Assembly (NCBI GenBank): GCA_963827515.1
Contig: CAWHBF010000021.1
Coordinates: 290,067-354,066 of the forward strand
Origin: an uncultured Acidobacteriota bacterium
GTDB taxonomy: Bacteria; Acidobacteriota; Vicinamibacteria; Vicinamibacterales; UBA2999
Direction: 5' to 3'
Length of the DNA: 64,000 bases
Each line of letters starts with the position of its first letter. Position 1 is the first letter of the stretch. The translations under genes and the position numbers were made by a program. This document shows positions 1,096 through 58,403 of the stretch, in pieces. The notes under the pieces were generated by a model. That model saw only the letters and a program-made list of their open reading frames with translations, was not told where the DNA came from and did no database searches.

Positions 1096-2232
1096 TCAGG
1101 ATGGTCGCGTGCGTCTCGCCGCCACCTCGAGAACCGCGGCGGCTGCCCGTCCACTGGCCCCGGACGAGCCCAGCCGATCTCTGACACCTCGCAGCGCCTC
1201 TCGCATCACGTCATAGCGCGTCAGATCGGTCAAGAGTCCGATGGCTTCCGCAGCCACCCGCTCAGGCGTGAACTCCTCCTGAATCAGCTCGGGCACGACG
1301 CGGCGTCCAGCGATGAGGTTCGGCATCGCATAGGTATCGACATTCAGGAATGGCTTCCCGAGCCGGTAGGACAGTGCCGACACGCGATACACCACGACCA
1401 TTGGCCGCTCGTGCAAGGCGGCTTGCACCGTCGCGGTTCCCGACGCGGTGATCACCACGTCCGATGCCGCGAGCACGTCGTCCGCGTGCCCATCGACGAT
1501 CGTGACTCCGCTCGTCGATAAAGCGCTGAACATCTGGTCCGACAGGCCAGGCGCGCGTGCGACGACGAACTGCACCCCAGGCACCCGGGAGCGAATGAGC
1601 GGCAGCGCCGAGGCCAGGACGGGAGCGATGCGTGCTACTTCGCTCCGACGACTGCCCGGTAGCAGCGCCACGGTCGGCACCTCTGGCGACAGACCGTGCG
1701 CTCGTAGAAACTCGCCGCGCGGTTGCGACGCTCGAGCCAAGTCCACGAGCGGGTGCCCGACGAACTGGACCGGCACTCCGGCTCGCTCATAGAACGCCGA
1801 TTCGAACGGAAAAATCACCAGCACCTTGGTGACGAACCGCTTCATCGTCTCCATGCGACGTGGCCGCCAGGCCCATAGCTGCGGGCTGACGTAGTAGACA
1901 ACCGGCACGCCGAGGCGCCACATCGCCGCAAGGAGATGGAAGTTGAAGCCGGCGAAGTCGATGGCCACGAAGACATCCGGACGTTCGGCCTTGGCTGCCG
2001 CAACGAGACGTCGATACATGGCGTACGCCTGGGGAAGGATGCGCACGATCTCGGTGAGCCCAGCCACCGACAGTCCGGCGAAGTTCCCGACCAGCCTGGC
2101 ACCGGCCGCTTCCATCCGCTCACCACCGAACCCGAAGATTGTGGTGGAAGGTGCACGAGCGCGGAGCTCAGCGACGAGAGCGGCGGCGTAGAGATCGCCG
2201 GACGGCTCGCCGCAGGAGATCATGACGTTCAC
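1096..2232 (-). CDS. lpxB: lipid-A-disaccharide synthase
   Basis: 378-aa ORF starting MNVMISCGEPSGDLYAAALVAELR, with full-length GT19 LpxB-like sequence. Start is GTG at 2232 or ATG at 2223. Confidence 0.9.
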   Translation of the reverse strand: MNVMISCGEPSGDLYAAALVAELRARAPSTTIFGFGGERMEAAGARLVGNFAGLSVAGLTEIVRILPQAYAMYRRLVAAAKAERPDVFVAIDFAGFNFHLLAAMWRLGVPVVYYVSPQLWAWRPRRMETMKRFVTKVLVIFPFESAFYERAGVPVQFVGHPLVDLARASQPRGEFLRAHGLSPEVPTVALLPGSRRSEVARIAPVLASALPLIRSRVPGVQFVVARAPGLSDQMFSALSTSGVTIVDGHADDVLAASDVVITASGTATVQAALHERPMVVVYRVSALSYRLGKPFLNVDTYAMPNLIAGRRVVPELIQEEFTPERVAAEAIGLLTDLTRYDVMREALRGVRDRLGSSGASGRAAAAVLEVAARRTRPS

Positions 2233-2239
2233 GCTTCTG

Positions 2240-2400
2240 AGTTCTCTGTTCTCGGTTCGTGTTCAGGTTCGGTGCTGGGTTCGCGGTTCTCGGTTCGGGG
2301 TTCAGGTTCGAGAACAGAGGTTCGGGGTTCGGGAACAGAGAACCGTGAACTTGAACCGTGAACCGAACCTGAACACGAACCGAGAAGACAGAACCAAGAA
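2240..2400. repeat. ~150-nt palindromic element built from NNGGTTC / GAACCNN heptads
   Basis: Left arm 2246-2273 (ctgttctcggttcgtgttcaggttcggt) versus right arm 2362-2391 (accgaacctgaacacgaaccgagaagacag). A 24-nt stretch is a perfect reverse complement; the interior is made of imperfectly complementary ggttc/gaacc heptads. It fills the M16-lpxB intergenic gap. Confidence 0.8.
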
Positions 2401-2419
2401 GTGTGAACGACGAGCTGCT

Positions 2420-13735: not shown

Positions 13736-13785
13736 CGCGCGGACCAAAGCTACTCGATGGACCGCTCTTCGATTCGGCGTAGAGC

Positions 13786-13846
13786 GGAGGCCTTAGCCTC
13801 CGCGGACACGCGCACGCTGAAGCGTGCGCTCTACGGCGAAATGCAA
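13786..13846. repeat. two REP-like units in inverted orientation
   Basis: gcgtagagcggaggccttagcctccgcggac is followed by acgcgcacgctgaagcgtgcgctctac, the reverse-complement unit. Confidence 0.75.
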
Positions 13847-13875
13847 ACCGCTCCAATCCCCCTGGGAACGGCCGG

Positions 13876-25152: not shown

Positions 25153-26580
25153 CCTCGCTGCTCGATCTGCCTTTCGACGAGCCGGAACGACCGGCGCCTG
25201 TCGTCCCCGACGCTCCGCCGCGACGACGGATCCTCACGGTCTCGGAGCTGACTGCAGATGTCCGGACGCTTCTCGAAGAACGATTCATCGAGGTCTGGGT
25301 CGAGGGCGAACTTTCGAACAGCCGGGTGTGGAACACCGGGCACATGTACTTCACCCTGAAGGACGCCGGCGCGCAGATCAAGGGCGTCATGTTTCGATCG
25401 GCGCTCCGCGCACTTCGATTTGCACCGCAGGACGGCCTTCGCGTCGTGGCACGCGGACGCGTCAGCGTCTACGACCCCAAGGGGGAGTATCAGCTCGTCT
25501 GCGAGCACCTCGAACCCGAGGGCCTCGGCGCTTTGCAGGTCGCCTTCGATCAGCTCAAGCAGAGACTTTCGGCGGAAGGCCTCTTCGATCCGGCCCGAAA
25601 GCGGGCACTCCCCGTACTCCCCAGGAAGATCGGCGTCGTCACGTCCCTCGATGGAGCGGCCATCCGCGACATCATTCATGTGTTGCGCCGCCGCTATCCC
25701 AACGCGCACATCGTCATTCGTCCAACGCGCGTCCAGGGAGAAGGTGCGGCGCCCGAGATTGCCGCCGCGATTTCCGCAATCGGGAGGGTCCCCGCGGTTG
25801 ATGTCGTGATCATCGCGCGCGGCGGTGGGTCGATCGAAGATCTCTGGGCGTTCAACGAGGAGATCGTCGCGCGGGTGATCGCACGCTGTCCGGTGCCGAC
25901 GATTTCCGCCGTGGGCCACGAGACCGACGTCACGATTGCTGACTTCGTCGCCGATCTTCGAGCGCCCACGCCGTCGGCGGCCGCCGAAATCGTCGTCGCC
26001 AGGAAGGACGACTTCGCAGCCCGCATCGACCGGCTGTCGCACCGTGTCCATTCGACCATGCAGGCGCGTGTGCACAGGTGCGAGTCGCGGTTGCGGGCGC
26101 TCGAGGCAAGGCCAGGCTTCGCTGGCTTCCGTGGCCGGCTGGCCATGCGCGGCCGGCATGTCGCCGACGTCACGCACGAGATCCGCCGCGCGATGCGCCT
26201 CCGCATGACCGCCGCCGAGCGGACTGCCCAGTCGCTGCAGCGAACGCTCGAGACCTTCGATCTGCGCAGGCGGCTCGGACGGGTTCGCGCGCGTCTGGTC
26301 GCGGCCGATGGTCGGTTGACAGCCGCCAGTGCGACGCAGCCGTCATCGTGCCGACCGGCAGTTACGCGGAGCAGCCGCACGGCTGGAAGCGCTCAGCCCT
26401 CTCGCCGTGTTGGGCCGGGGCTATGCGGTCTGCTGGAACGCCGACCGCACCGCGGTCATCCGCGAGGCAAGTGCGGTGGCTTCGGGTGAGCACGTCCGCG
26501 TCACCCTGGCACAGGGCGAACTAGAATGTGCGGTGACGGGCCGCAGAGACACGGCGACGGGACTTCCCAGGTCCGGCTAA
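25149..26580 (+). CDS. xseA: exodeoxyribonuclease VII large subunit, frameshifted near 26328
   Basis: N-terminal OB fold [44 protein letters not shown]. The conserved C-terminus [52 protein letters not shown] is encoded in the +1 frame (ORF 26329-26580). Confidence 0.85.
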
Positions 26581-26654
26581 AGCCGGACACTACGTACGCA
26601 CTGAGCCATTGACGGGGCGTGCGAGACGATCGTAGTGTCCGGCTTCAGCCGGAC
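26571..26654. repeat. composite REP-like palindrome (two 24-nt arms, each containing its own small hairpin)
   Basis: gtccggctaaagccggacactacg ... cgtagtgtccggcttcagccggac. The left arm supplies the last codons and the TAA stop of the frame-corrected xseA. Confidence 0.8.
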
Positions 26655-26760
26655 CCTTGTGACAGACACACTGAGACGATGACCGGAAAAAGACTGCTCT
26701 GTGCTTCTCTTCATCTGTGGCCCGTGAGAGTGCGCACGCGGCCTGCAAGGATGGATACGC

Positions 26761-36436: not shown

Positions 36437-36445
36437 TGTTATACT
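36437..36445 (+). promoter_or_regulatory. possible extended -10 promoter (TGTTATACT) for tRNA-Val
   Basis: TGnTATACT lies ~35 nt upstream of the mature tRNA 5' end. No good -35 element. Confidence 0.3.
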
Positions 36446-36480: not shown

Positions 36481-36557
36481 AGGCGCGTAGCTCAGCTGGT
36501 TAGAGCGCCTCCCTGACACGGAGGAGGTCAGTGGTTCGAGTCCACCCGCGCCTACCA
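36481..36557 (+). tRNA. tRNA-Val (anticodon GAC), CCA encoded
   Basis: Manual cloverleaf: acceptor AGGCGCG/CGCGCCT; U8 A9; D-arm GCTC-AGCTGGTTA-GAGC; anticodon arm CCTCC-CTGACAC-GGAGG; variable AGGTC; T-arm AGTGG-TTCGAGT-CCACC; discriminator A followed by CCA. Confidence 0.9.
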
Positions 36558-36663
36558 ATCTTGGTCTTTGGTCTCTAGTCTTTGGTCTCTGGATTCTGGT
36601 CTTTGGACCAACGACCAGGACCGAAGATCAAGAACTAGAGACCAGAGACCAAAGACCAGAGAC
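36558..36663 (+). repeat. heptad-periodic hairpin: (TYTGGTC)~7, spacer, (GACCARA)~6
   Basis: tttggtc tctagtc tttggtc tctggat tctggtc tttggac / gaccgaa gatcaag aactaga gaccaga gaccaaa gaccaga. The arms are complementary, with G.U pairs only in the + sense. Confidence 0.8.
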
Positions 36664-36680
36664 TGTCTTCCCGTCTTCCA

Positions 36681-38642
36681 ATGCCTGACGTCACCATCAC
36701 ACTACCGGACGGATCTCACCGGACGCTGCCGGTCGGCTCGGCCGTGCGCGATGTGGCCGCGGGTATTTCTCCGCGTCTGGCCAAGGCGGCACTGGCCGGC
36801 GTGGTCAACGATCGTCTGGTCGATCTGACGTTTCCCCTCGACTCTGACTCAACCGTACGCATCGTCACACCGGAAAGCCCCGAAGCGCTGGCGCTCTGCC
36901 GGCACAGCACGGCGCATCTACTGGCCGCCGCGGTGACGAATCTTTTTCCCGACGTGCAGTGCGGGATCGGCCCCGCGACCGACGAGGGCTTCTTCTACGA
37001 CTTCGTCGTCCCGCGACCGTTCGTACCCGAAGACATCGAGGCCATCGAGGGGAAGATGCGCGAACTCGCGCGGCAGGACCTCCCGTACGAGCGCCAGATG
37101 TGGCCACGCGAAGAGGCGCTGCGATTTTTCGGCGCCCGCCGGGAGCCATTGAAGGTTCAGCTGATCGACGAGAAAACCGAAGGCCAGCGTGAGGTGTCCT
37201 GCTACACCATCAAGGACCGCGCCACGTTCGTGGACTTCTGCACCGGTCCGCACGTGCCGTCAACGGGGAGGCTCAAGGCCTTCAAGCTCCTGAGCACCTC
37301 GAACGCGTATTGGAAAGGCGACGCGAAGAACCAGCCAATGCAGCGGGTCTACGGCACGGCGTTCATCGCGGAGAAGGAGCTGCAGGAGTACCTGCAACGT
37401 CTCGAGGAAGCCAAGAAGCGGGACCATCGCAAGATCGGGCGCGATCAGAAGCTGTTCATGTTCCATCCCTGGGCGCCCGGCGCCACGTTCTGGCTGCCGA
37501 AGGGAACGGTGCTGTACAACACGCTCGCCAACTACATGCGCGAGGTGCTCGTGCCGGCGGGGTACGAAGAGGTCAAGGCGCCGATCGTGCTGAACAAGGC
37601 GCTGTGGGAAACGTCGGGACACTGGCAGCACTACCGCGAGAACATGTTCCTCGTCGACAGCGAGGGCGAGCAACTCGGGCTCAAGGCGATGAACTGTCCG
37701 GGGCACTTCCTGATGTACGCGAACGAGATGCGCAGCTACCGGGACCTGCCGATCCGATTTCACGAGCAGACGCCGCTGCACCGCAACGAGGCGTCAGGCG
37801 TCCTGTCGGGGCTCACTCGCGTGCGTCAGTTCAGCCAGGACGACGCTCATTGCTTCGTGATGGAGTCGCAGATCGCCGAGGAGGTCGAACGGCTCCTCCG
37901 GCTCGTGCAACGCGTCTACGGCGACTTCGGCCTGACTCCCGAAATGAAGCTCTCCACCCGGCCGCCGGAGTTCCTCGGCACCATCGAAACCTGGGACCTG
38001 GCCGAGGCCGGACTGCGGCAGGCGCTCGAGGCGGCGGGGGTCCGTTACACGGTGAATGCGGGCGACGGGGCCTTCTACGGACCGAAAATAGATTTCGACG
38101 TCATCGACGCGATTGGACGCAAGCATCAGTGCGCGACGATTCAACTCGACTACATGCAGGCAGAGCGGTTCAACCTTACGTATGTCGGAGCCGATAACGC
38201 TCAACACCGCCCGGTCATCATTCATCGCGCGATTTTCGGGAGTTTTGAGCGGTTCATTGCCCTGCTCATCGAGCACTTCGCCGGGGCCTGGCCTCTCTGG
38301 CTGGCCCCCGTGCAGGTCGCCGTTTTGCCGATTGCAGACCGTCACCTGGCCTATACACGGACCGTTCGCGACCAGTTGGCGGCGTCGGGGATGCGGGTCG
38401 AACTCGATGAGCGTTACGAGAAGATTGGCTATAAGATCCGAGAGGCTCAACTTCAGAAGGTTCCCTACATGCTCGTCGTGGGAGACCGGGAGGCCGCCGA
38501 CGGGACGGTATCGGTCCGAAGTCGCTTCGGGGGAGACCTTGGCGCGAGGCCGGTGCAAGAGTTCGTGACCGCAGCGCTCGAGGAGATTCGCTCGAGAGCA
38601 CAGGGCGCAACGGTTGCGCCCGCCGAGAAGCAATCGGCGTAG
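36681..38642 (+). CDS. thrS: threonine--tRNA ligase
   Basis: 653 aa. TGS domain MPDVTITLPDGS..., editing-domain motif HSTAHLLA, class II core and anticodon-binding domain; full-length ThrRS. Confidence 0.95.
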   Translation: MPDVTITLPDGSHRTLPVGSAVRDVAAGISPRLAKAALAGVVNDRLVDLTFPLDSDSTVRIVTPESPEALALCRHSTAHLLAAAVTNLFPDVQCGIGPATDEGFFYDFVVPRPFVPEDIEAIEGKMRELARQDLPYERQMWPREEALRFFGARREPLKVQLIDEKTEGQREVSCYTIKDRATFVDFCTGPHVPSTGRLKAFKLLSTSNAYWKGDAKNQPMQRVYGTAFIAEKELQEYLQRLEEAKKRDHRKIGRDQKLFMFHPWAPGATFWLPKGTVLYNTLANYMREVLVPAGYEEVKAPIVLNKALWETSGHWQHYRENMFLVDSEGEQLGLKAMNCPGHFLMYANEMRSYRDLPIRFHEQTPLHRNEASGVLSGLTRVRQFSQDDAHCFVMESQIAEEVERLLRLVQRVYGDFGLTPEMKLSTRPPEFLGTIETWDLAEAGLRQALEAAGVRYTVNAGDGAFYGPKIDFDVIDAIGRKHQCATIQLDYMQAERFNLTYVGADNAQHRPVIIHRAIFGSFERFIALLIEHFAGAWPLWLAPVQVAVLPIADRHLAYTRTVRDQLAASGMRVELDERYEKIGYKIREAQLQKVPYMLVVGDREAADGTVSVRSRFGGDLGARPVQEFVTAALEEIRSRAQGATVAPAEKQSA

Positions 38643-38651
38643 GAATACTCG

Positions 38652-38759
38652 CTAGTCTTTGGTCTTTAGGCTTTGGTCTTTGGTCTTTAGCTTTGGTCTT
38701 TGGACCCGAGACTGGGACGAAAGACTAGAGACCAGAGACCAGAGACCAGCCAAGACCAG
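38652..38759 (+). repeat. heptad-periodic hairpin: (TTTGGTC)~7, loop, (AGAGACC)~4
   Basis: ctagtc tttggtc tttaggc tttggtc tttggtc tttagc tttggtc tttggac ccgagactgggacg aaagact agagacc agagacc agagacc agccaag accag. The right arm ends at the infC GGAGG. Confidence 0.8.
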
Positions 38760-38770
38760 CGGAGGATGAT

Positions 38771-39370
38771 ATCGCTTTCGACCGTTCGCCCCGACGTGAC
38801 GACCGTGTTCGCACCAATGAACGCATCCGAGTTCGAGAGATCCGGGTCATTGACGAAACCGGACAACAGCTCGGCATCATGCCTCCGCCACAAGCGCTGG
38901 TTATCGCAAAGCAGAAAGGCCTCGACCTCGTCGAGATCTCTCCGACCGCGGTGCCACCGGTCTGTCGGATCATGGACTTCGGCCAGTACCAGTACCAGGA
39001 GCAGAAGCGTGCTCGGGAGGCCAAGAAGCACCAGCGGGTGATCGAGGTCAAGGAGATCAAGTTCCGGCCGAAGGTCGATGTGCATGACTACGACTTCAAG
39101 AAGAAGCACATCGAGCGCTTTCTGGCTGAGGGCGACAAGGTCAAGGCGACGATCTTCTTCCGTGGTCGAGAGATGGCGCACCCCGAGATCGGGCGGCGCA
39201 TTCTCGAGCGACTGATTGCGGAACTTGCCGACGTGGCCATCGCGGAGACGATGCCCCGGCAGGAAGGCAACCAGATGCACGTGATCCTCAGCCAGAAGGC
39301 TGGGCGCAAGGTTGCGAAGCCGCGGCCGGCGGACGCACCGAAAGAAGCGGTCCCGGCGCCGGAAGAGTAG
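38771..39370 (+). CDS. infC: translation initiation factor IF-3, probable AUC start codon
   Basis: The frame is open from 38729. It encodes conserved [60 protein letters not shown] upstream of the first ATG (38879). The only start-like codon is ATC 38771, 6 nt after GGAGG. Confidence 0.8.
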
Positions 39371-39423
39371 ATGCCCTGAGGCGAGGCAAGTGCAAAGTTC
39401 AAAGTACCAGAAGTGTTAAGTGC

Positions 39424-39490
39424 CTAGAGCCCAGAGCCCAGAGCCCAACTAAAGACTAGAGACCAAAGACTAACAAGAGACTAGAGAGAG
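39424..39490 (+). repeat. heptad-periodic A/C/G-rich leader, single arm (ccagagc x3, gagacca, aagacta ...)
   Basis: ctagagc ccagagc ccagagc ccaacta aagacta gagacca aagacta acaagag actagag agag runs up to the rpmI ATG. No complementary GGTCT arm nearby. Confidence 0.7.
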
Positions 39491-39688: not shown

Positions 39689-39759
39689 GCGGGCGGCCTT
39701 CGGGCTGCTGATCCAGTACATGTCGAGTCGGACTACGGTCCGTCTGTCAGAGGAATGAG

Positions 39760-43685: not shown

Positions 43686-44003
43686 ATGGGAGGCGTCGTG
43701 ACGGTTGAAATTGCCGGCCAACAGTACCCAATCCGCAGCGGCTTGGACGCGAACTACGTGGCGGAGCTCGCCGCCTATGTCGACCAGAAAATGCGCGCGG
43801 CGTCCGACGCGGCGCCGGCGACCGACCGGCTCGGGCTGGCGGTGCTCGTGGCGCTCAACCTGGCGGACGAATACTTCCGCGCGCGCCAGCACGACACCGG
43901 CTTGGGCGGCGCGCTGAACGAGCGGGCGCTCAGACTCGAGCAGCTCCTCGACGAAGCGCTCAAGGGCTCGGAGTCCGTGAAGTTCCGTGAGCTGAGCGCC
44001 TAG
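43686..44003 (+). CDS. zapA: cell division protein ZapA
   Basis: VTVEIAGQQYPIRSGLDANYVAELAAYVDQKMRAASD...LAVLVALNLADEY is a typical ZapA sequence. Confidence 0.85.
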   Translation: MGGVVTVEIAGQQYPIRSGLDANYVAELAAYVDQKMRAASDAAPATDRLGLAVLVALNLADEYFRARQHDTGLGGALNERALRLEQLLDEALKGSESVKFRELSA

Positions 44004-44085: not shown

Positions 44086-44091
44086 CTTCAA

Positions 44092-44278
44092 GCTCCTGCT
44101 TTGCTCGTGATGGTTTTCGGAGGCTCGTCTGAGCCAACGTACAACCCAAGTGAGCCGCGAGGTCGCGTGTTGTGCATGCCTCTGTTGCGAGGAAGCCTGA
44201 AGCGAGACCGATAACAGCGGTTCCACCTGCTTTCGCAGGTTCACTCGACCTCCCCACACGGCAAAGCGGGGCGATTTG
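44092..44278 (+). ncRNA. ssrS: 6S RNA candidate (~187 nt)
   Basis: Non-coding gap downstream of zapA, which is the classical ssrS position. Closing stem CCTGCTTTGC (44095-) pairs with GCAAAGCGGG (44261-), and GGAGG pairs with CCTCC further in. The apical part GCATGCCTCTGTTGCGAGGAAGCCTGAAGC resembles E. coli GCAUGCUCGGUCCGUCCGAGAAGCCUUAAAAC. Dedicated promoter upstream. Confidence 0.6.
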
Positions 44279-54360: not shown

Positions 54361-54520
54361 CGCGGCACGCTTTAGACCGCTTTCGATTGGCGTAGAGCGC
54401 ACGCTTTAGCGTGCGCGGAGACAAGTGAGGCGCATCGCGTTAGCCGTGCGCCTTGGCGGAAGAGACGCGTTCTAGCGTGCGCGGGCGTGATGTAGAGCGC
54501 ATGCTTTAGCGTGCGCGGGT
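54361..54520. repeat. cluster of ~5 REP-like units
   Basis: Includes two near-consensus copies: gcgtagagcgcacgctttagcgtgcgcggagac (54391-) and gatgtagagcgcatgctttagcgtgcgcgggtgac (54490-). Confidence 0.8.
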
Positions 54521-56874: not shown

Positions 56875-57229
56875 GGGGGCGACTTTGGCTTCGACGGGGG
56901 TAGAGAATCGCGGGATGCATGCCGAGCTCCATTGACTCGTAAAACCGATGGAACATCCGTTAACTGCGGATTCTAACTACGCTCTCGCAGCCTAATAAGC
57001 TGTGAGCGTCTGCCCTGACCTCGCCTGGTGGTTGGGGGTCAGACGCCATTAAACAGGCTGGCTTTCGGATGGCGGCTCGGCGTCCGAGGGTGAGAAATAC
57101 CGGGTCTGGTGTCCGGCGGTTTTTGGCCGCTTCCTCACGCCGGGCATGAGAAATCAGAAGCGGACACGCATGTAGAGTCCTACGAGGACATACTTTCGGA
57201 CGCGGGTTCGACTCCCGCCGCCTCCACCA
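56875..57229 (+). ncRNA. ssrA: tmRNA (transfer-messenger RNA), tag peptide ADSNYALAA
   Basis: 5' GGGGGCGACTTTGGCTTCGACGGGGG pairs with 3' ...GGACGCGGGTTCGACTCCCGCCGCCTCCACCA (acceptor stem with G3:U70, T-arm GCGGG-TTCGACT-CCCGC, CCA). Tag ORF is GCG GAT TCT AAC TAC GCT CTC GCA GCC TAA TAA at 56966-56998. Confidence 0.95.
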
Positions 57230-57358
57230 TCTCTAAGCTATTAGCGTACAAAGGCTTAGTCGATTCACACGCCTCCTAGTTTGGTTCAAATCAGGTACAG
57301 CGCGCCGACACGGCGTGCGCGGCCTCGATCTAAGTGACTGAGGCCACGGCCTTTGTTG

Positions 57359-57393
57359 TTTCGGACGCCTTACTAGTCTCCCGCCACCTCCAC
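57359..57393 (+). repeat. degenerate direct copy of the tmRNA 3' end (att-like scar)
   Basis: tttcggacgc-cttactagt-ctcccgcc-a-cctccac compared with tmRNA 57194-57227 tttcggacgc-gggttcga-ctcccgcc-g-cctccac. 25 identical positions in three blocks. Confidence 0.55.
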
Positions 57394-57443
57394 AAGCCTG
57401 ACGTCCTTCCTCGCTGAGCGTTGCCCAGCGGTATCATTCACCG

Positions 57444-57731
57444 ATGTCGCTCGAGGCGCTGCGGACACACCGACGAACGATTCTCGAACTGGCGGAGCGT
57501 CACGGTGCACGCAACGTGCGTGTCTTTGGCTCAACGGTTCGTGGAGACGCGAGACCCGATAGCGATATCGACATCCTCGTCGAGGTCGAGCGTGGCCGGA
57601 CGCTCCTCGACGTGATCGCCTTCGAGCAGGACCTCGAGGAGCTCCTCGGACGCTCGGTGGAGGTGTTGACGGATGCTGGACTCAGTCCCTACCTCCAGCA
57701 GCGCATTCTCATAGAAGCCGCAGCGTTGTGA
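57444..57731 (+). CDS. nucleotidyltransferase-domain protein (MNT-type antitoxin)
   Basis: RVFGSTVRGDARPDSDIDILVE carries the GSxxRG...DxD minimal NTase motif. 95 aa. Confidence 0.85.
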   Translation: MSLEALRTHRRTILELAERHGARNVRVFGSTVRGDARPDSDIDILVEVERGRTLLDVIAFEQDLEELLGRSVEVLTDAGLSPYLQQRILIEAAAL

Positions 57732-57871
57732 AGGACGACCTGGTCTATCTGCAGCACATCCGGGATGCACTAGAACGACTCGGCAAGACGGCCCCGTGGC
57801 GGGAATGTAACGGGTTGGGTATGGACGTCCCGAGTGCGACTGTTACGGAGAGCGTCCAACCAGAGCGATGA
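57728..57871 (+). pseudogene. truncated HEPN/DUF86 (HepT-like) toxin remnant, 47 codons
   Basis: A GTGA overlap with the MNT stop leads into VKDDLVYLQHIRDALERLGKTA, which matches the DUF86 N-terminus. The sequence then diverges and stops, so the C-terminal Rx4-6H motif is absent. Confidence 0.6.
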
Positions 57872-57896
57872 CAGCCTTCAAGTGCGGATCGGGTCG

Positions 57897-58403
57897 TTAT
57901 CGCTGTTTGAGGATCGCGCGTACGTCCTTGAGCAGGACGAACAGGTGATACGCGTCAGTGGGAGCCGGCGTGAAACCAAACCGTTCGTAGAACGCCCGCG
58001 CGTCGTCGTCCTTCGCGTGCACCGCCATTGCCCGGATGCCGGCGATGTCGGCGGCTTGCAGCGTCCGCAGCATGGCGTCTTTGAGCAGTCCGGACCCGAG
58101 TCCTTTGCCCTGCCAATTGGTGGCCACGGCCAGACGCGCGAGAAGCATCAGTGGAATCGGATGCTTGGCCAGTCCCTTTGCCAGACGCTGGGGCGCGTCG
58201 TCGTACTCGACCTGCGCCACGACGAGCGTGTAGAACCCGACGACTTGGTCGTCCACTACGGCTACATACGTCTGCGAGGCCTCTGCTTGCTGATTCTGAA
58301 ACGCGTAGCGCGCCAGGAAACGGTTGAGCGCCTCCTGCCCGCAATCAAAGGAATCGACGGGGTGCTCGCGGCGCAGCTTTTCAATCCGCGGGCCGTTGTT
58401 CAC
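57897..58403 (-). CDS. GNAT-family acetyltransferase toxin (TacT/KacT-like)
   Basis: ...IEKLRREHPVDSFDCGQEALNRFLARYA...LARLAVATNWQGKGLGSGLLKDA...FYERFGF. GTG 58403 overlaps the antitoxin stop (GTGA). Confidence 0.85.
   Translation of the reverse strand: MNNGPRIEKLRREHPVDSFDCGQEALNRFLARYAFQNQQAEASQTYVAVVDDQVVGFYTLVVAQVEYDDAPQRLAKGLAKHPIPLMLLARLAVATNWQGKGLGSGLLKDAMLRTLQAADIAGIRAMAVHAKDDDARAFYERFGFTPAPTDAYHLFVLLKDVRAILKQR

Follow-up and report, generated by a model that had tools for sequence, protein, structure and literature searches.

The spacer between the genes for tRNA-Val and threonyl-tRNA synthetase (thrS) raises a simple question: is the long hairpin built from 7-nt repeats that fills it a device for controlling thrS, or something more general that happens to lie there? 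It was found in a 64-kb stretch of DNA, here called the window, from a member of the Acidobacteriota (order Vicinamibacterales). On balance, we favour the view that it is a heptad palindrome, the product of slippage, whose transcript forms a generic stem-loop, rather than a sensor or operator dedicated to thrS. As to its class, it is very probably a heptanucleotide simple-sequence repeat (SSR, or microsatellite) palindrome, in which two arrays of one 7-nt unit face each other.

The arrangement of the locus, all of it on the + strand, is as follows. The tRNA-Val gene (anticodon GAC, with an encoded CCA) occupies 36481-36557 (ARAGORN; Rfam RF00005, 64.4 bits). The 5′ arm follows at 36558-36609 with about 6.6 heptads of the form TYTGGTC, read as tcttggtc, tttggtc, tctagtc, tttggtc, tctggat, tctggtc and tttggac, and it is picked up by Tandem Repeats Finder at period 7, by a scan for identity at lag 7 and as one arm of the inverted repeat I2. 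The loop between the arms is 8 nt long in the I2 register (36610-36617), with a similar apical loop in the minimum-energy fold and an overall estimate of 8-14 nt. The 3′ arm at 36618-36663, seen by Tandem Repeats Finder, in I2 and in the fold, holds about six heptads GACCARA, the reverse complement of the 5′ unit. As the initial annotation had it, this arm ends 17 nt ahead of the thrS ATG, and the leader in between (36664-36680), read directly from the sequence, is pyrimidine-rich and has no purine-rich Shine-Dalgarno (SD) sequence; thrS is likewise free of an SD-like motif in 71 of 74 relatives. The open reading frame of thrS itself (36681-38642) is 75-84% identical to those of relatives, and the product of a close relative shows the Pfam domains TGS, tRNA_SAD, tRNA-synt_2b and HGTP_anticodon. 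Upstream of tRNA-Val, a −10-like box, TATACT, can be read at 36440-36445, within a block that is kept in the close relatives L081-84; it is likely, from its sequence and position, to be the promoter of the tRNA-Val-thrS transcript, and a consensus promoter scan returned no full σ70 match.

The heptad periodicity of 36558-36663 and its hairpin form, both proposed initially, are borne out by Tandem Repeats Finder, by the lag-7 scan and by RNA folding, which had been suggested as a check. Tandem Repeats Finder reports 36561-36606 at period 7 (6.6 copies, consensus TTGGTCT), the complementary array at 36606-36663 (3.9-4.2 copies) and, within it, 36637-36663 as AGAGACC repeated 3.9 times at 90% match; the higher-order periods 14, 20 and 21 outscore 7. 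The repeats thus run to at least three head-to-tail 7-nt copies, which defines a heptanucleotide SSR, and their copy number and sequence vary between related genomes, the mark of SSRs of the slippage type. Watson-Crick complementarity between the arms (36564-36609 and 36618-36663) is 76% in a single register and rises to 83-88% when the register is shifted by 7 or 14 nt (I2, I4, I5, I7, I8 and I14). The 15-mer tggtctttggtctct, put forward as the perfectly paired outer end of the stem, does have a perfect complement within the 3′ arm; the register is shifted, and the outermost pairs are others. The RNA of 36558-36663 folds at −66.4 kcal/mol (z −7.2), a value equalled by none of 200 shuffles, and the opposite strand is nearly equal to it (−63.7 kcal/mol, z −6.2). 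Pairing of the heptad variants as G·U also holds in part, with 6 G·U in the best register next to 3 A·C and 1 transversion mismatch.

Similar arrays occur elsewhere in the window. The 64 kb contain 6 arrays of period 7, whereas 200 block shuffles average 0.005, which excludes chance, and the count is 0 at periods 2-5, 8-13 and 15, one at period 6 and three at the harmonic 14. They make up 5-6 heptad loci, intergenic without exception. A second hairpin of the TYTGGTC/GACCARA unit (38652-38759, + strand; Tandem Repeats Finder and fold) fills the spacer between thrS and infC, with its 5′ arm at about 38652-38705 and its 3′ arm at about 38719-38759; it folds at −62.5 kcal/mol (z −6.5) and ends right before the infC SD sequence GGAGGA (38761-38766), the AUC start of infC lying at 38771. 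One relative (L001) holds a matching hairpin at the matching site. Further downstream, Tandem Repeats Finder gives single-arm arrays at 39422-39490 (+ strand), GCCCAGA repeated 3.7 times and then an AGACYARA type repeated six times, which are unstructured (z −0.1) and reach the rpmI ATG (39491); the infC-rpmI spacer, 120 nt long in the window, measures only 28 nt in L081/L082. The largest member, a GGTTCNN/GAACCNN hairpin at 2226-2409 on the − strand (Tandem Repeats Finder, I1, fold and Pfam), fills the spacer between the genes for peptidase M16 and lpxB, both on the − strand; its 57-nt arms (I1) are 86% complementary and fold at −98.8 kcal/mol (z −10.9), and its unit differs from TYTGGTC. The last, a single-arm AGACCAR array at 904-945 (− strand; Tandem Repeats Finder and Pfam), belongs to the leader of a gene of the aconitase family and has no structure of its own. 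The recurring family of the initial annotation is therefore real as far as the arrays go, and it is not all one thing, since one member has a different unit and some have a single arm.

How the element fares elsewhere can be seen in 80 relatives in which the order tRNA-Val-thrS-infC-rpmI-rplT-pheS is conserved. tRNA-Val stands directly upstream of thrS in all 80, the spacer ranging from 10 to 304 nt; as the gap is sometimes only 10-14 nt, thrS must be co-transcribed with tRNA-Val, and + strand RNA is almost certainly made across the region, as had been supposed. The spacer is shorter than 50 nt in 12 of the 80, and heptad arrays are found in it in only about 9-14. Two relatives (L001 and L006) retain only the TGGTC arm; L081-84, whose ThrRS falls in the same 90%-identity cluster as that of the window, have a decayed hairpin that folds no better than shuffles; and in many others unrelated REP-like palindromes fill the spacer. 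With the hairpin absent or one-armed in most relatives, any function would be dispensable, and the hairpin at this site is, judging from the orthologous spacers, dispensable. The claim of a selected RNA structure specific to tRNA-Val/thrS is not supported. Paired arms at orthologous sites and covariation between arms had been named as what such a structure ought to show: the former are missing in most relatives and the latter is largely replaced by independent change, with mismatches at multiples of 7 nt, so that both tests go partly against it.

What persists across these genomes is the period. Among the arrays of the 80 relatives, 97 have period 7, and no other period between 4 and 11 has more than 20 (period 8 is also seen in some relatives); in 149 operon spacers the identity at lags 7, 14, 21 and 28 is 0.399, 0.378, 0.339 and 0.308 where about 0.26 is the baseline. 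Within the thrS coding sequence the only period is 3, and E. coli spacers carry no lag-7 signal. The unit itself varies among genomes and among the spacers of one genome (TTGGTCT, CAATGCC, CAGCTAT, GGTTCTC, CTGGTAG and others), and the arms remain reverse-complementary despite the change: many spacers consist of an array, a loop and the reverse-complement array, and the rplT-pheS spacer alone is built in different relatives from CAATGCC/GGCATTG, CACAAGT/ACTTGTG or AATGCAC/GTGCATT. Turnover of the unit with the period kept excludes a sequence-specific reader, whether protein or RNA, and indicates either a mutational origin or a constraint on structure or footprint. In 50 facing-array hairpins of the relatives, Watson-Crick complementarity averages 85%, and 141 of 544 arm-to-arm mismatches are spaced at multiples of 7 nt where 78 are expected (p ~1e-12); mismatches recurring every 7 nt mean that each arm has been homogenised separately. 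Elsewhere, a metagenome probe for the TYTGGTC unit, (TGGTCTY)2TGGTC, was run together with a control probe. At least 120 contigs of 27-71% G+C match it, and such different G+C contents imply that the arrays come from many taxa; a reverse-complement partner array lies within 200 nt of 22 of 80 metagenomic arrays against 2 of 80 for the control, and the arrays of the probed TGGTCTY unit are single-armed in the other 58.

Position and strand speak to a possible role of the RNA. The arrays of the relatives are intergenic in 91 of 95 cases. Co-directional gaps, 64 kb in all, contain 82 of them and divergent gaps, 11 kb in all, contain 4, a density about 3.5 times higher in the former; this enrichment is due largely to orthologous copies of a single operon, so that the counts are not independent. 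Divergent gaps carry no lag-7 signal. An apparent enrichment specific to the thrS operon (0.40 against 0.30 in other gaps) was rejected, crude gene calls having diluted the signal; with one method for both, lag-7 identity is 0.309 in operon gaps and 0.313 in upstream co-directional gaps. The 5′ arms begin 0-10 nt past the upstream stop codon and the 3′ arms end about 20 nt ahead of SD-bearing start codons. Masking of the ribosome-binding site as a general means of translational coupling finds no support at infC and rplT, the 3′ arm stopping there about 20 nt before the start with the SD free; only at two spacers whose arm extends to the start codon, rplT-pheS and peptidase M16-lpxB, might it still apply. 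The excess of G·U over A·C, which had been read as a sign of structure at the RNA level, looked promising in 26 hairpins (47:27) and was lost in 50 (72:55, p 0.16; sign test 22 against 15). The folds of the sense strand exceed those of the antisense strand in stability by 2.7 kcal/mol on average (p 0.002), a difference confounded by G+T-rich single arms, and single arms have no strand or composition bias relative to transcription (G+T above 0.55 in 31 and below 0.45 in 27).

We propose the following sequence of events. First, replication slippage would duplicate or delete units and blocks of two or three units; heptamers are over-represented in bacterial intergenic DNA, and polymerase slippage has been suggested in this connection (PMC4679880, PMC4692102). 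For the period of seven (at times eight), the literature offers the footprint of the polymerase as a possible reason. Second, intrastrand template switching would create the inverted copy, or make it perfect again. Third, each arm would be homogenised alone after the inversion, so that the period and the complementarity of the units persist while the unit sequence drifts freely. Such concerted evolution driven by slippage is, from the pattern of repeats, the probable course. Finally, since the element lies in transcribed co-directional spacers, it would be copied into the tRNA-Val-thrS-infC-rpmI-rplT-pheS transcript, where it should form an imperfect stem-loop of about 40-45 bp a few nucleotides past the tRNA CCA and leave the final 17 nt before the thrS start free. 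There it may act as generic, non-essential punctuation in the manner of REP/BIME elements: as a double-stranded target of RNases, or a barrier to them, it could part the tRNA from the thrS mRNA and cap the new mRNA 5′ end, and in spacers between open reading frames a terminating ribosome would have to open it. That the RNA has any selected role at all is a matter on which we put the chances close to even and a little on the negative side.

The element is of the same kind as the STRR hairpins of cyanobacteria and the convergent arrays of Xanthomonas, here in Vicinamibacterales, and one STRR unit, TTGGTCA, is nearly identical to its TTGGTCT unit. Like the window element, STRRs consist of tandem 7-bp units, are intergenic and often lie between co-transcribed genes (PMC2670836, PMC4692102); several units occur per genome and facing arrays can form a hairpin, as in the 7-bp-repeat hairpin between hupS and hupL, for which a role in transcript stability or translational coupling has been proposed (PMC2670836). 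The window element, on the other hand, belongs to another phylum (Acidobacteriota, Vicinamibacterales) and to a 65% G+C genome, with no evidence of common descent, and here the comparison of 80 genomes shows the unit changing while the period and the complementarity of the arms persist. The GGGAATC heptamers of Xanthomonas (Rehm et al. 2015) lie in intergenic DNA in 89-93% of cases, for the most part between genes of one direction and near the upstream stop codon; they form 70-75 convergent array pairs, potential stem-loops or cruciforms, and their length and sequence differ among close species (PMC4692102). Facing pairs as in Xanthomonas and the STRR hairpins, that is, close and pairable opposite-strand arrays of one unit, are what we find here, whereas the Xanthomonas unit is G-rich, with a G-quadruplex proposed (PMC4692102), and the window units, which differ by spacer, have no G-tracts (TYTGGTC/GACCARA and GGTTCNN contain no runs of three or more G). 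Cyanobacteria having already furnished 7-bp-repeat hairpins between co-transcribed genes (PMC2670836), and Xanthomonas convergent arrays of heptamers (PMC4692102), the family is less unusual than the initial annotation took it to be.

Other heptamer systems are more distant. The TAACTGA direct repeats of Beggiatoaceae and Microcystis (MacGregor 2015) lie mostly in intergenic DNA, immediately ahead of start codons, and a translational role with binding of Csp or S1 has been proposed (PMC4679880); in position they resemble the one-armed arrays before rpmI and the aconitase gene, while among them one heptamer dominates with 1 inverted set in 170, and here units are many and inverted pairs common. 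Geobacter metallireducens has families of elements with four or five tandem heptanucleotides, of which one class is drawn strand-switching with mostly paired sites and labelled as putative global regulatory elements (PMC2700814). Unlike the arrays here, these have a fixed sequence found by BLAST in one genome, are in some cases intragenic and keep their copies at 4-5. A literature search for heptamer repeats in Acidobacteria found nothing. REP/BIME elements are imperfect palindromes in transcribed spacers and at operon 3′ ends, dispensable at a given site and lineage-specific in sequence, and they stabilise mRNA, act as attenuators or obstruct ribosomes near stop codons; a REP is a single unit of 20-40 nt whose one sequence is conserved within its family, moved by RAYT transposases (IS200/IS605-like) and free of 7-nt periodicity. 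The heptad hairpins would work like the REP/BIME elements of enterobacteria and pseudomonads and differ from them by the internal 7-nt periodicity; with 7-nt arrays for arms, units that differ among the spacers of one genome and no single conserved palindrome of 20-40 nt, they are not REP/BIME, in agreement with the initial annotation. A CRISPR array, in which repeats of at least 23 nt are separated by unique spacers of similar length, was rejected as well, the units here being contiguous 7-mers with no spacers.

Nearly as good a fit as a punctuation hairpin is a purely neutral by-product, in which slippage and template switching leave their debris in tolerant spacers with no selected role in DNA or RNA; as the whole account we consider this somewhat unlikely. 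The varying length of the tRNA-Val-thrS spacer and its absent, one-armed or REP-like-replaced hairpins are what it predicts, as are the decay among L081-84, the periodic mismatches of arms homogenised alone, the non-significant G·U bias, the indifference of single arms to strand and composition and the excess of single-armed arrays in metagenomes. It accounts less well for arrays being denser in co-directional than in divergent gaps and for sense folds that are slightly but significantly more stable. Partner arms about ten times commoner than with the control probe, and the many orthologous spacers, such as rplT-pheS, that keep a hairpin with both arms changed, also count against it, weakly, as template switching could produce either.

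The constancy of seven could also come from a molecular ruler rather than chance slippage, either a protein with a 7-nt footprint or a lineage-specific property of the replicase, which we regard as improbable; in the former case a cold-shock-domain or S1-type protein would read or melt the arrays as a general system of operon punctuation and for translational coupling. Taken as a full explanation, a periodic platform in which one heptad is one OB-fold site of about 7 nt (for a cold-shock-domain protein or an S1 domain), and the paired form an ‘off’ state melted by such chaperones so that translation and coupling respond to temperature or growth, is more doubtful still. A fixed period with free sequence is indeed what a footprint binder of low specificity would leave, and the single arms that extend to the start codons of rpmI and the aconitase gene agree with it, as do the precedents of B. 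subtilis CspB, with one protein per heptamer (reviewed in PMC4679880), and of Nostoc, where repeated heptamers close to start codons are suspected of influencing translation (bioRxiv 10.1101/2022.06.06.494920). Csp and S1, however, prefer U/A-rich, G-poor RNA, and the arrays have no compositional preference on the sense strand; the occurrence of period 8 and the spread of TGGTCTY-unit arrays over many taxa further weigh against it.

A dedicated regulator, towards which the initial annotation leaned, be it a signal-responsive leader acting on thrS termination, translation or processing or a device for processing the tRNA-Val/thrS transcript, is very unlikely, having been largely refuted by the comparative sequence data. 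The position between a tRNA and an SD-less start, with the arm ending so close to the ATG, the strong fold and the preponderance of G·U over A·C within this one hairpin would suit it, as would the example of E. coli, whose thrS is autoregulated through its leader. In that operator, mimics of the tRNA-Thr anticodon arm lie by the thrS ribosome-binding site and are conserved with the gene. Here the stem is a repeat array, the loop is not conserved and the element is not conserved with thrS in 80 relatives, so that conservation and architecture reject an E. coli-type operator, as the initial annotation had done; a conserved thrS-specific leader of any kind is rejected by the 80 orthologous spacers and by L081-84. 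The same kind of element in the peptidase M16-lpxB spacer and the aconitase leader also tells against a thrS regulator, and no ligand- or tRNA-binding architecture is present. Rfam at the gathering threshold matched only tRNA, tmRNA and 6S, and its E-value search gave only sub-threshold look-alikes of miRNA precursors, that is, generic long hairpins; the T-box, already discounted initially, the L20 leader and other Rfam families were rejected on these searches. Nor is the hairpin an intrinsic terminator, for the sequence after its 3′ arm, gactgtcttccc, has no U-tract and a terminator scan finds none at any hairpin of the window.

Least probable of all is a DNA-level role, as a cruciform or slipped structure or a site for a nucleoid or topology protein that acts on supercoiling, replication or recombination, for although both strands fold almost equally, G·U bias is absent, three heptads make 21 bp or two helical turns (and period 21 outscores 7), L028/L029 have one array upstream of a −10 box and hence outside the mature transcript, and BIME elements bind gyrase and IHF, the unit changes from spacer to spacer within a genome, so that a sequence-specific protein could not read them all, and arrays are depleted in divergent promoter regions.

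Returning to the slippage-made palindrome, its wider meaning is that in Vicinamibacterales, a soil order rich in uncultured members, heptad arrays, whose period outlasts complete turnover of the unit and whose facing arms match at the level of the unit though homogenised separately, account for a large part of the spacer DNA inside operons. If the ruler reading were true, the order would offer a natural data set for why long microsatellites of bacteria prefer seven. For annotation, the arrays give strong but meaningless hairpin matches, miRNA-like in Rfam, and are easily taken for riboregulators of the adjoining gene. They also matter for assembly, as assemblies break within heptad arrays.

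In our analysis, the best-supported reading of the hairpin between tRNA-Val and thrS (window 36558-36663, + strand) is that it is a heptanucleotide microsatellite palindrome. Directly past the CCA of tRNA-Val(GAC) (36481-36557, +; ARAGORN), the + strand reads a tcttggtc tttggtc tctagtc tttggtc tctggat tctggtc tttggac, then caacgaccag between the arms and gaccgaa gatcaag aactaga gaccaga gaccaaa gaccaga, from which gactgtcttcccgtcttcca leads to the thrS ATG. Tandem Repeats Finder reports period 7 at 36561-36606 (6.6 copies, consensus TTGGTCT), the complementary array at 36606-36663, and a period 21 that outscores period 7. A repeat finder aligns arms 36564-36609 and 36618-36663 with 76% complementarity, and five more registers, offset by one or two heptads, are 82-88% complementary; the hairpin can thus zip in several registers. 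Predicted folding gives -66.4 kcal/mol (z -7.2) for the + strand RNA and -63.7 kcal/mol (z -6.2) for the - strand. The heptad-periodic hairpin described in the initial annotation is thus confirmed by both repeat searches, by the RNA fold it had proposed as a check and by a lag scan against shuffles. Its exclusion of a T-box, the ThrRS operator and REP was also correct. Rfam at the gathering threshold matches only tRNA, tmRNA and 6S in the window; the relaxed threshold adds only sub-threshold miRNA-precursor look-alikes, since any long hairpin yields such matches.

Period, intergenic and co-directional location, unit turnover, per-arm homogenization, lability between relatives and a strong predicted fold characterize the heptad arrays. 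A sliding lag-identity scan of the window finds six period-7 arrays, against a mean of 0.005 in block shuffles, together with one array at period 6, three at the harmonic 14 and none at periods 2-5, 8-13 or 15. The recurring family proposed earlier is real at its further sites, which are of several types: 38652-38759 forms another hairpin of the same TYTGGTC/GACCARA unit (-62.5 kcal/mol, z -6.5), 2226-2409 (- strand, peptidase M16 gene-lpxB spacer) is a larger hairpin of a different unit, GGTTCNN/GAACCNN (-98.8 kcal/mol, z -10.9), and the arrays at 904-945 and 39422-39490 have a single arm and no structure. Across 80 loci (701 kb) in genome assemblies matched by ThrRS protein at 74-84% identity, nearly all of them carrying the label Vicinamibacterales, Vicinamibacteria or Acidobacteriota, the scan finds 97 period-7 arrays, whereas every other period between 4 and 11 gives 2-20. 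In the 149 spacers with a length of 40 nt or more (16.5 kb in total; thrS-infC, infC-rpmI, rpmI-rplT and rplT-pheS, bounded by tblastn), base identity at lags 7, 14, 21 and 28 is 0.399, 0.378, 0.339 and 0.308, respectively, and ~0.26 elsewhere; thrS coding sequence shows period 3 only, and in E. coli the spacers around the thrS operon give no lag-7 signal. The unit sequence is not conserved among relatives (TTGGTCT, CAATGCC, CAGCTAT, GGTTCTC, CTGGTAG, CCCTGGT, AATGCAG) and also varies from spacer to spacer within one genome. The preference for seven is strong, not absolute: a few arrays have period 8, and hairpins of 8-nt units (GAATTGAC; AGTGGAAA) occur in L040 (5939-6066, thrS-infC) and in the tRNA-Val-thrS spacers of L014, L028 and L029. 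By rough gene calls, on which the gap classes are also based, 91/95 arrays of relatives are intergenic, and the 64 kb of co-directional gaps contain 82 arrays, the 11 kb of divergent gaps 4; by one method, co-directional gaps have a lag-7 identity of 0.309-0.313 both within the operon and beyond it, and divergent gaps give no lag-7 signal. The hairpins begin 0-10 nt 3' of the upstream stop codon and stop ~20 nt short of Shine-Dalgarno (SD)-bearing start codons, leaving the SD free; those at rplT-pheS and peptidase M16-lpxB extend to the start codon. Many spacers are built as a 5' array, a loop and a reverse-complement array, and orthologous sites carry the same changed unit on both arms, as at rplT-pheS with CAATGCC/GGCATTG (L003, L013, L018, L020), CACAAGT/ACTTGTG (L006, L024) and AATGCAC/GTGCATT (L037, L052). 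N runs lie within or beside arrays in L049 (7061-7209) and L057 (2063-2189), which indicates that assemblies break or get scaffolded inside heptad repeats; the arrays are probably longer than MAGs show.

We now consider whether the structure belongs to the tRNA-Val-thrS site, where tRNA-Val(GAC) precedes thrS by 10-304 nt, in the same orientation, in 80/80 loci. First of all, the spacer is shorter than 50 nt in 12/80 relatives. Second, among the longer spacers, 32/68 fold with z < -2, 9/68 pass a strict cut-off for a clear heptad array, and a few more contain looser period-7 or period-8 arrays. Third, in most of the remaining spacers (e.g. L003, L007, L008, L011, L012, L017) tRNA-Val is directly followed by one of two unrelated REP-like palindromes, 'TTCGACTCGCC...GGCGAGTCGAAGGGC' or 'ACCTTCGCTC...GAGCTTCGGTTGGCAAGCC'; this spacer is a hot spot at which palindromes of all kinds insert. 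Finally, L005 has a hairpin with the same unit, L001 and L006 retain the TGGTC arm alone, and in L081-84, close relatives whose ThrRS shares a 90%-identity cluster with that of the window, the element is decayed (tggtctt tcatctg tagtcgc ... gaccgaa gacagac; fold z +0.5, no better than shuffles), their infC-rpmI spacer being 28 nt versus 120 nt in the window. With orthologous spacers thus short, one-armed, replaced or decayed, the element is labile and dispensable here. The main rival to a functional reading is a complete lack of effect, which fits nearly as well. A dedicated thrS regulator is less likely: a selected RNA structure specific to the tRNA-Val/thrS transcript is not supported on these counts, and lability across orthologous spacers excludes a conserved thrS-specific riboregulator. 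A separate REP-like palindrome, GTCCGGCTTnAGCCGGAC (window 26570-26655, arms 96% complementary), also occurs in operon spacers of L049, L059, L071 and L073, pointing to an order-wide REP-like family distinct from heptad arrays; two other window palindromes (13758-13855 and 54397-54516) look like further families.

Arm differences had initially been read as G.U pairs in + sense RNA. The best register does contain 6 G.U beside 33 Watson-Crick pairs, but also 3 A.C and 1 transversion mismatch; 26 heptad-armed operon hairpins give 47 G.U versus 27 A.C, and 50 hairpins from all co-directional gaps give 72 versus 55 (binomial p 0.16; per-hairpin sign test 22 versus 15, p 0.32). Sense folds are more stable than antisense by 2.7 kcal/mol on average (p 0.002), a gap to which G+T-rich single arms, self-pairing via G.U, contribute. 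Evidence of RNA-level selection on heptad hairpins is thus weak, because the G.U excess is not significant and the fold gap stems partly from those single arms. A DNA-level role of the element is less likely. Mismatch pairs between arms lie at multiple-of-7 spacing in 141/544 cases versus 78 expected (p ~1e-12), so that a variant is propagated within its own arm while the opposite arm shows no corresponding change, and mean Watson-Crick complementarity between arms (85%) is near unit-to-unit identity within them (79%). The arms are complementary by unit, not pair by pair: they do vary largely independently through per-arm homogenization, yet the unit-level match is kept. A metagenome scan for TGGTCTYTGGTCTYTGGTC, of unit TGGTCTY, matched at least 120 contigs whose G+C span of 27% to 71% indicates many taxa. 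A partner array (reverse complement, matching at 15 or more of 19 positions, no more than 200 nt away) accompanies 22/80 among the matches listed, versus 2 for a control probe, and 13/31 of those listed in contigs of at least 60% G+C; arm co-occurrence is far above chance, although most arrays are single.

Quasipalindrome template-switch mutagenesis is established. We suggest that heptad arrays arise by slippage, acting on single units and on blocks of several units (compare periods 14 and 21), and that template switching may create or re-perfect the inverted arm. The element would be transcribed inside the tRNA-Val-thrS mRNA, where its ~40-45 bp stem may have a generic REP-like effect as a substrate for an RNase III-type enzyme or as a barrier to exonucleases, parting tRNA from mRNA and capping the thrS 5' end; in ORF-ORF spacers, the hairpin would sit at the stop codon. 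The survey summaries in PMC4679880 and PMC4692102 present heptanucleotide repeats as the most abundant 5-11 nt class in many prokaryotes, with polymerase slippage suggested as the cause, and the account of cyanobacterial STRR sequences in PMC2670836 gives typically 7 bp repeats, with a hairpin of this kind between hupS and hupL for which a part in transcript stability or translational coupling is proposed. Xanthomonas has ~185 GGGAATC arrays per genome, ~90% intergenic and for the most part flanked by co-directional genes, close to the stop codon of the upstream one, with 70-75 convergent pairs and extensive variation among sister species (PMC4692102). In Geobacter metallireducens, heptanucleotides in tandem sets of four or five make up families, one of them depicted as paired sites (PMC2700814), and deletion of heptamer repeats alters reporter output in Nostoc, the mechanism being left open (bioRxiv 10.1101/2022.06.06.494920). 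A Csp/S1 landing platform, as suggested for TAACTGA direct repeats just 5' of start codons in Beggiatoaceae and Microcystis (PMC4679880), is a less likely role for the element. Our literature search found nothing on heptamer repeats in Acidobacteria. The family, initially judged the most unusual signal here, is real and statistically overwhelming but is no new regulatory RNA; it is a new phylum-level instance of a known, still unexplained heptamer-repeat class. The pattern of conserved period, free unit sequence and arms matching by unit bears on why long bacterial microsatellites prefer seven, and has some value there.

The order thrS-infC-rpmI-rplT-pheS is conserved in 80/80 loci as far as each contig extends; in the window, thrS (36681-38642) is followed by infC, rpmI (39491), rplT (39760) and, in the gene list, pheS/pheT. 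Some relatives have a tRNA-Val-thrS gap of 10-14 nt, leaving no promoter room, so thrS must be co-transcribed with the tRNA, and the window spacer almost certainly lies in a + strand transcript. A site scan found no terminator-like or sigma-70-like sites at any heptad hairpin. A TATACT -10-like box lies ~35 nt 5' of tRNA-Val (36440-36445) and is kept in close relatives; a (GAGCCCT)n array adjoins the same box in L028 (3599-3680) and L029 (2-69), so arrays can also occupy the promoter-proximal region. The thrS start indeed has no recognisable SD (leader 36664-36680); 71/74 relatives likewise have no SD-like motif in the last 20 nt, and leaders of L001-L080 are pyrimidine-rich (0.59), which suggests SD-independent initiation across the order. 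E. coli infC starts with AUU. Window infC starts with AUC at 38771 behind GGAGGA (start region 38761-38773), and relatives use AUC (64/79), AUA (12/79) or AUU (2/79), with a GGAGG SD in 78/79; an unusual IF3 start codon, mostly AUC rather than the E. coli AUU, is thus maintained. The 90%-identity cluster of window ThrRS also lists many IF3 proteins (160-190 aa), which may reflect thrS/infC fused or mis-joined in some deposited gene calls, or a clustering artefact. The window spacer before rplT (39689-39759) is different, non-heptad, common to L005 and without an Rfam L20_leader match; L019, L028, L029, L038, L040, L051 and L053 share a conserved 'GGTCGCTGGGTC...GCACCCAATAGCCGAAGAGGA' within the 60-70 nt that immediately precede rplT, a candidate leader for L20 autoregulation. 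Elsewhere in the window, a permuted 'tmRNA*' call (57137-57901, ARAGORN) is probably spurious, since it overlaps the tmRNA (56875-57229, tag ADSNYALAA) and has no Rfam support, and 6S RNA (44090-44276) lies downstream of zapA (43686-44003).
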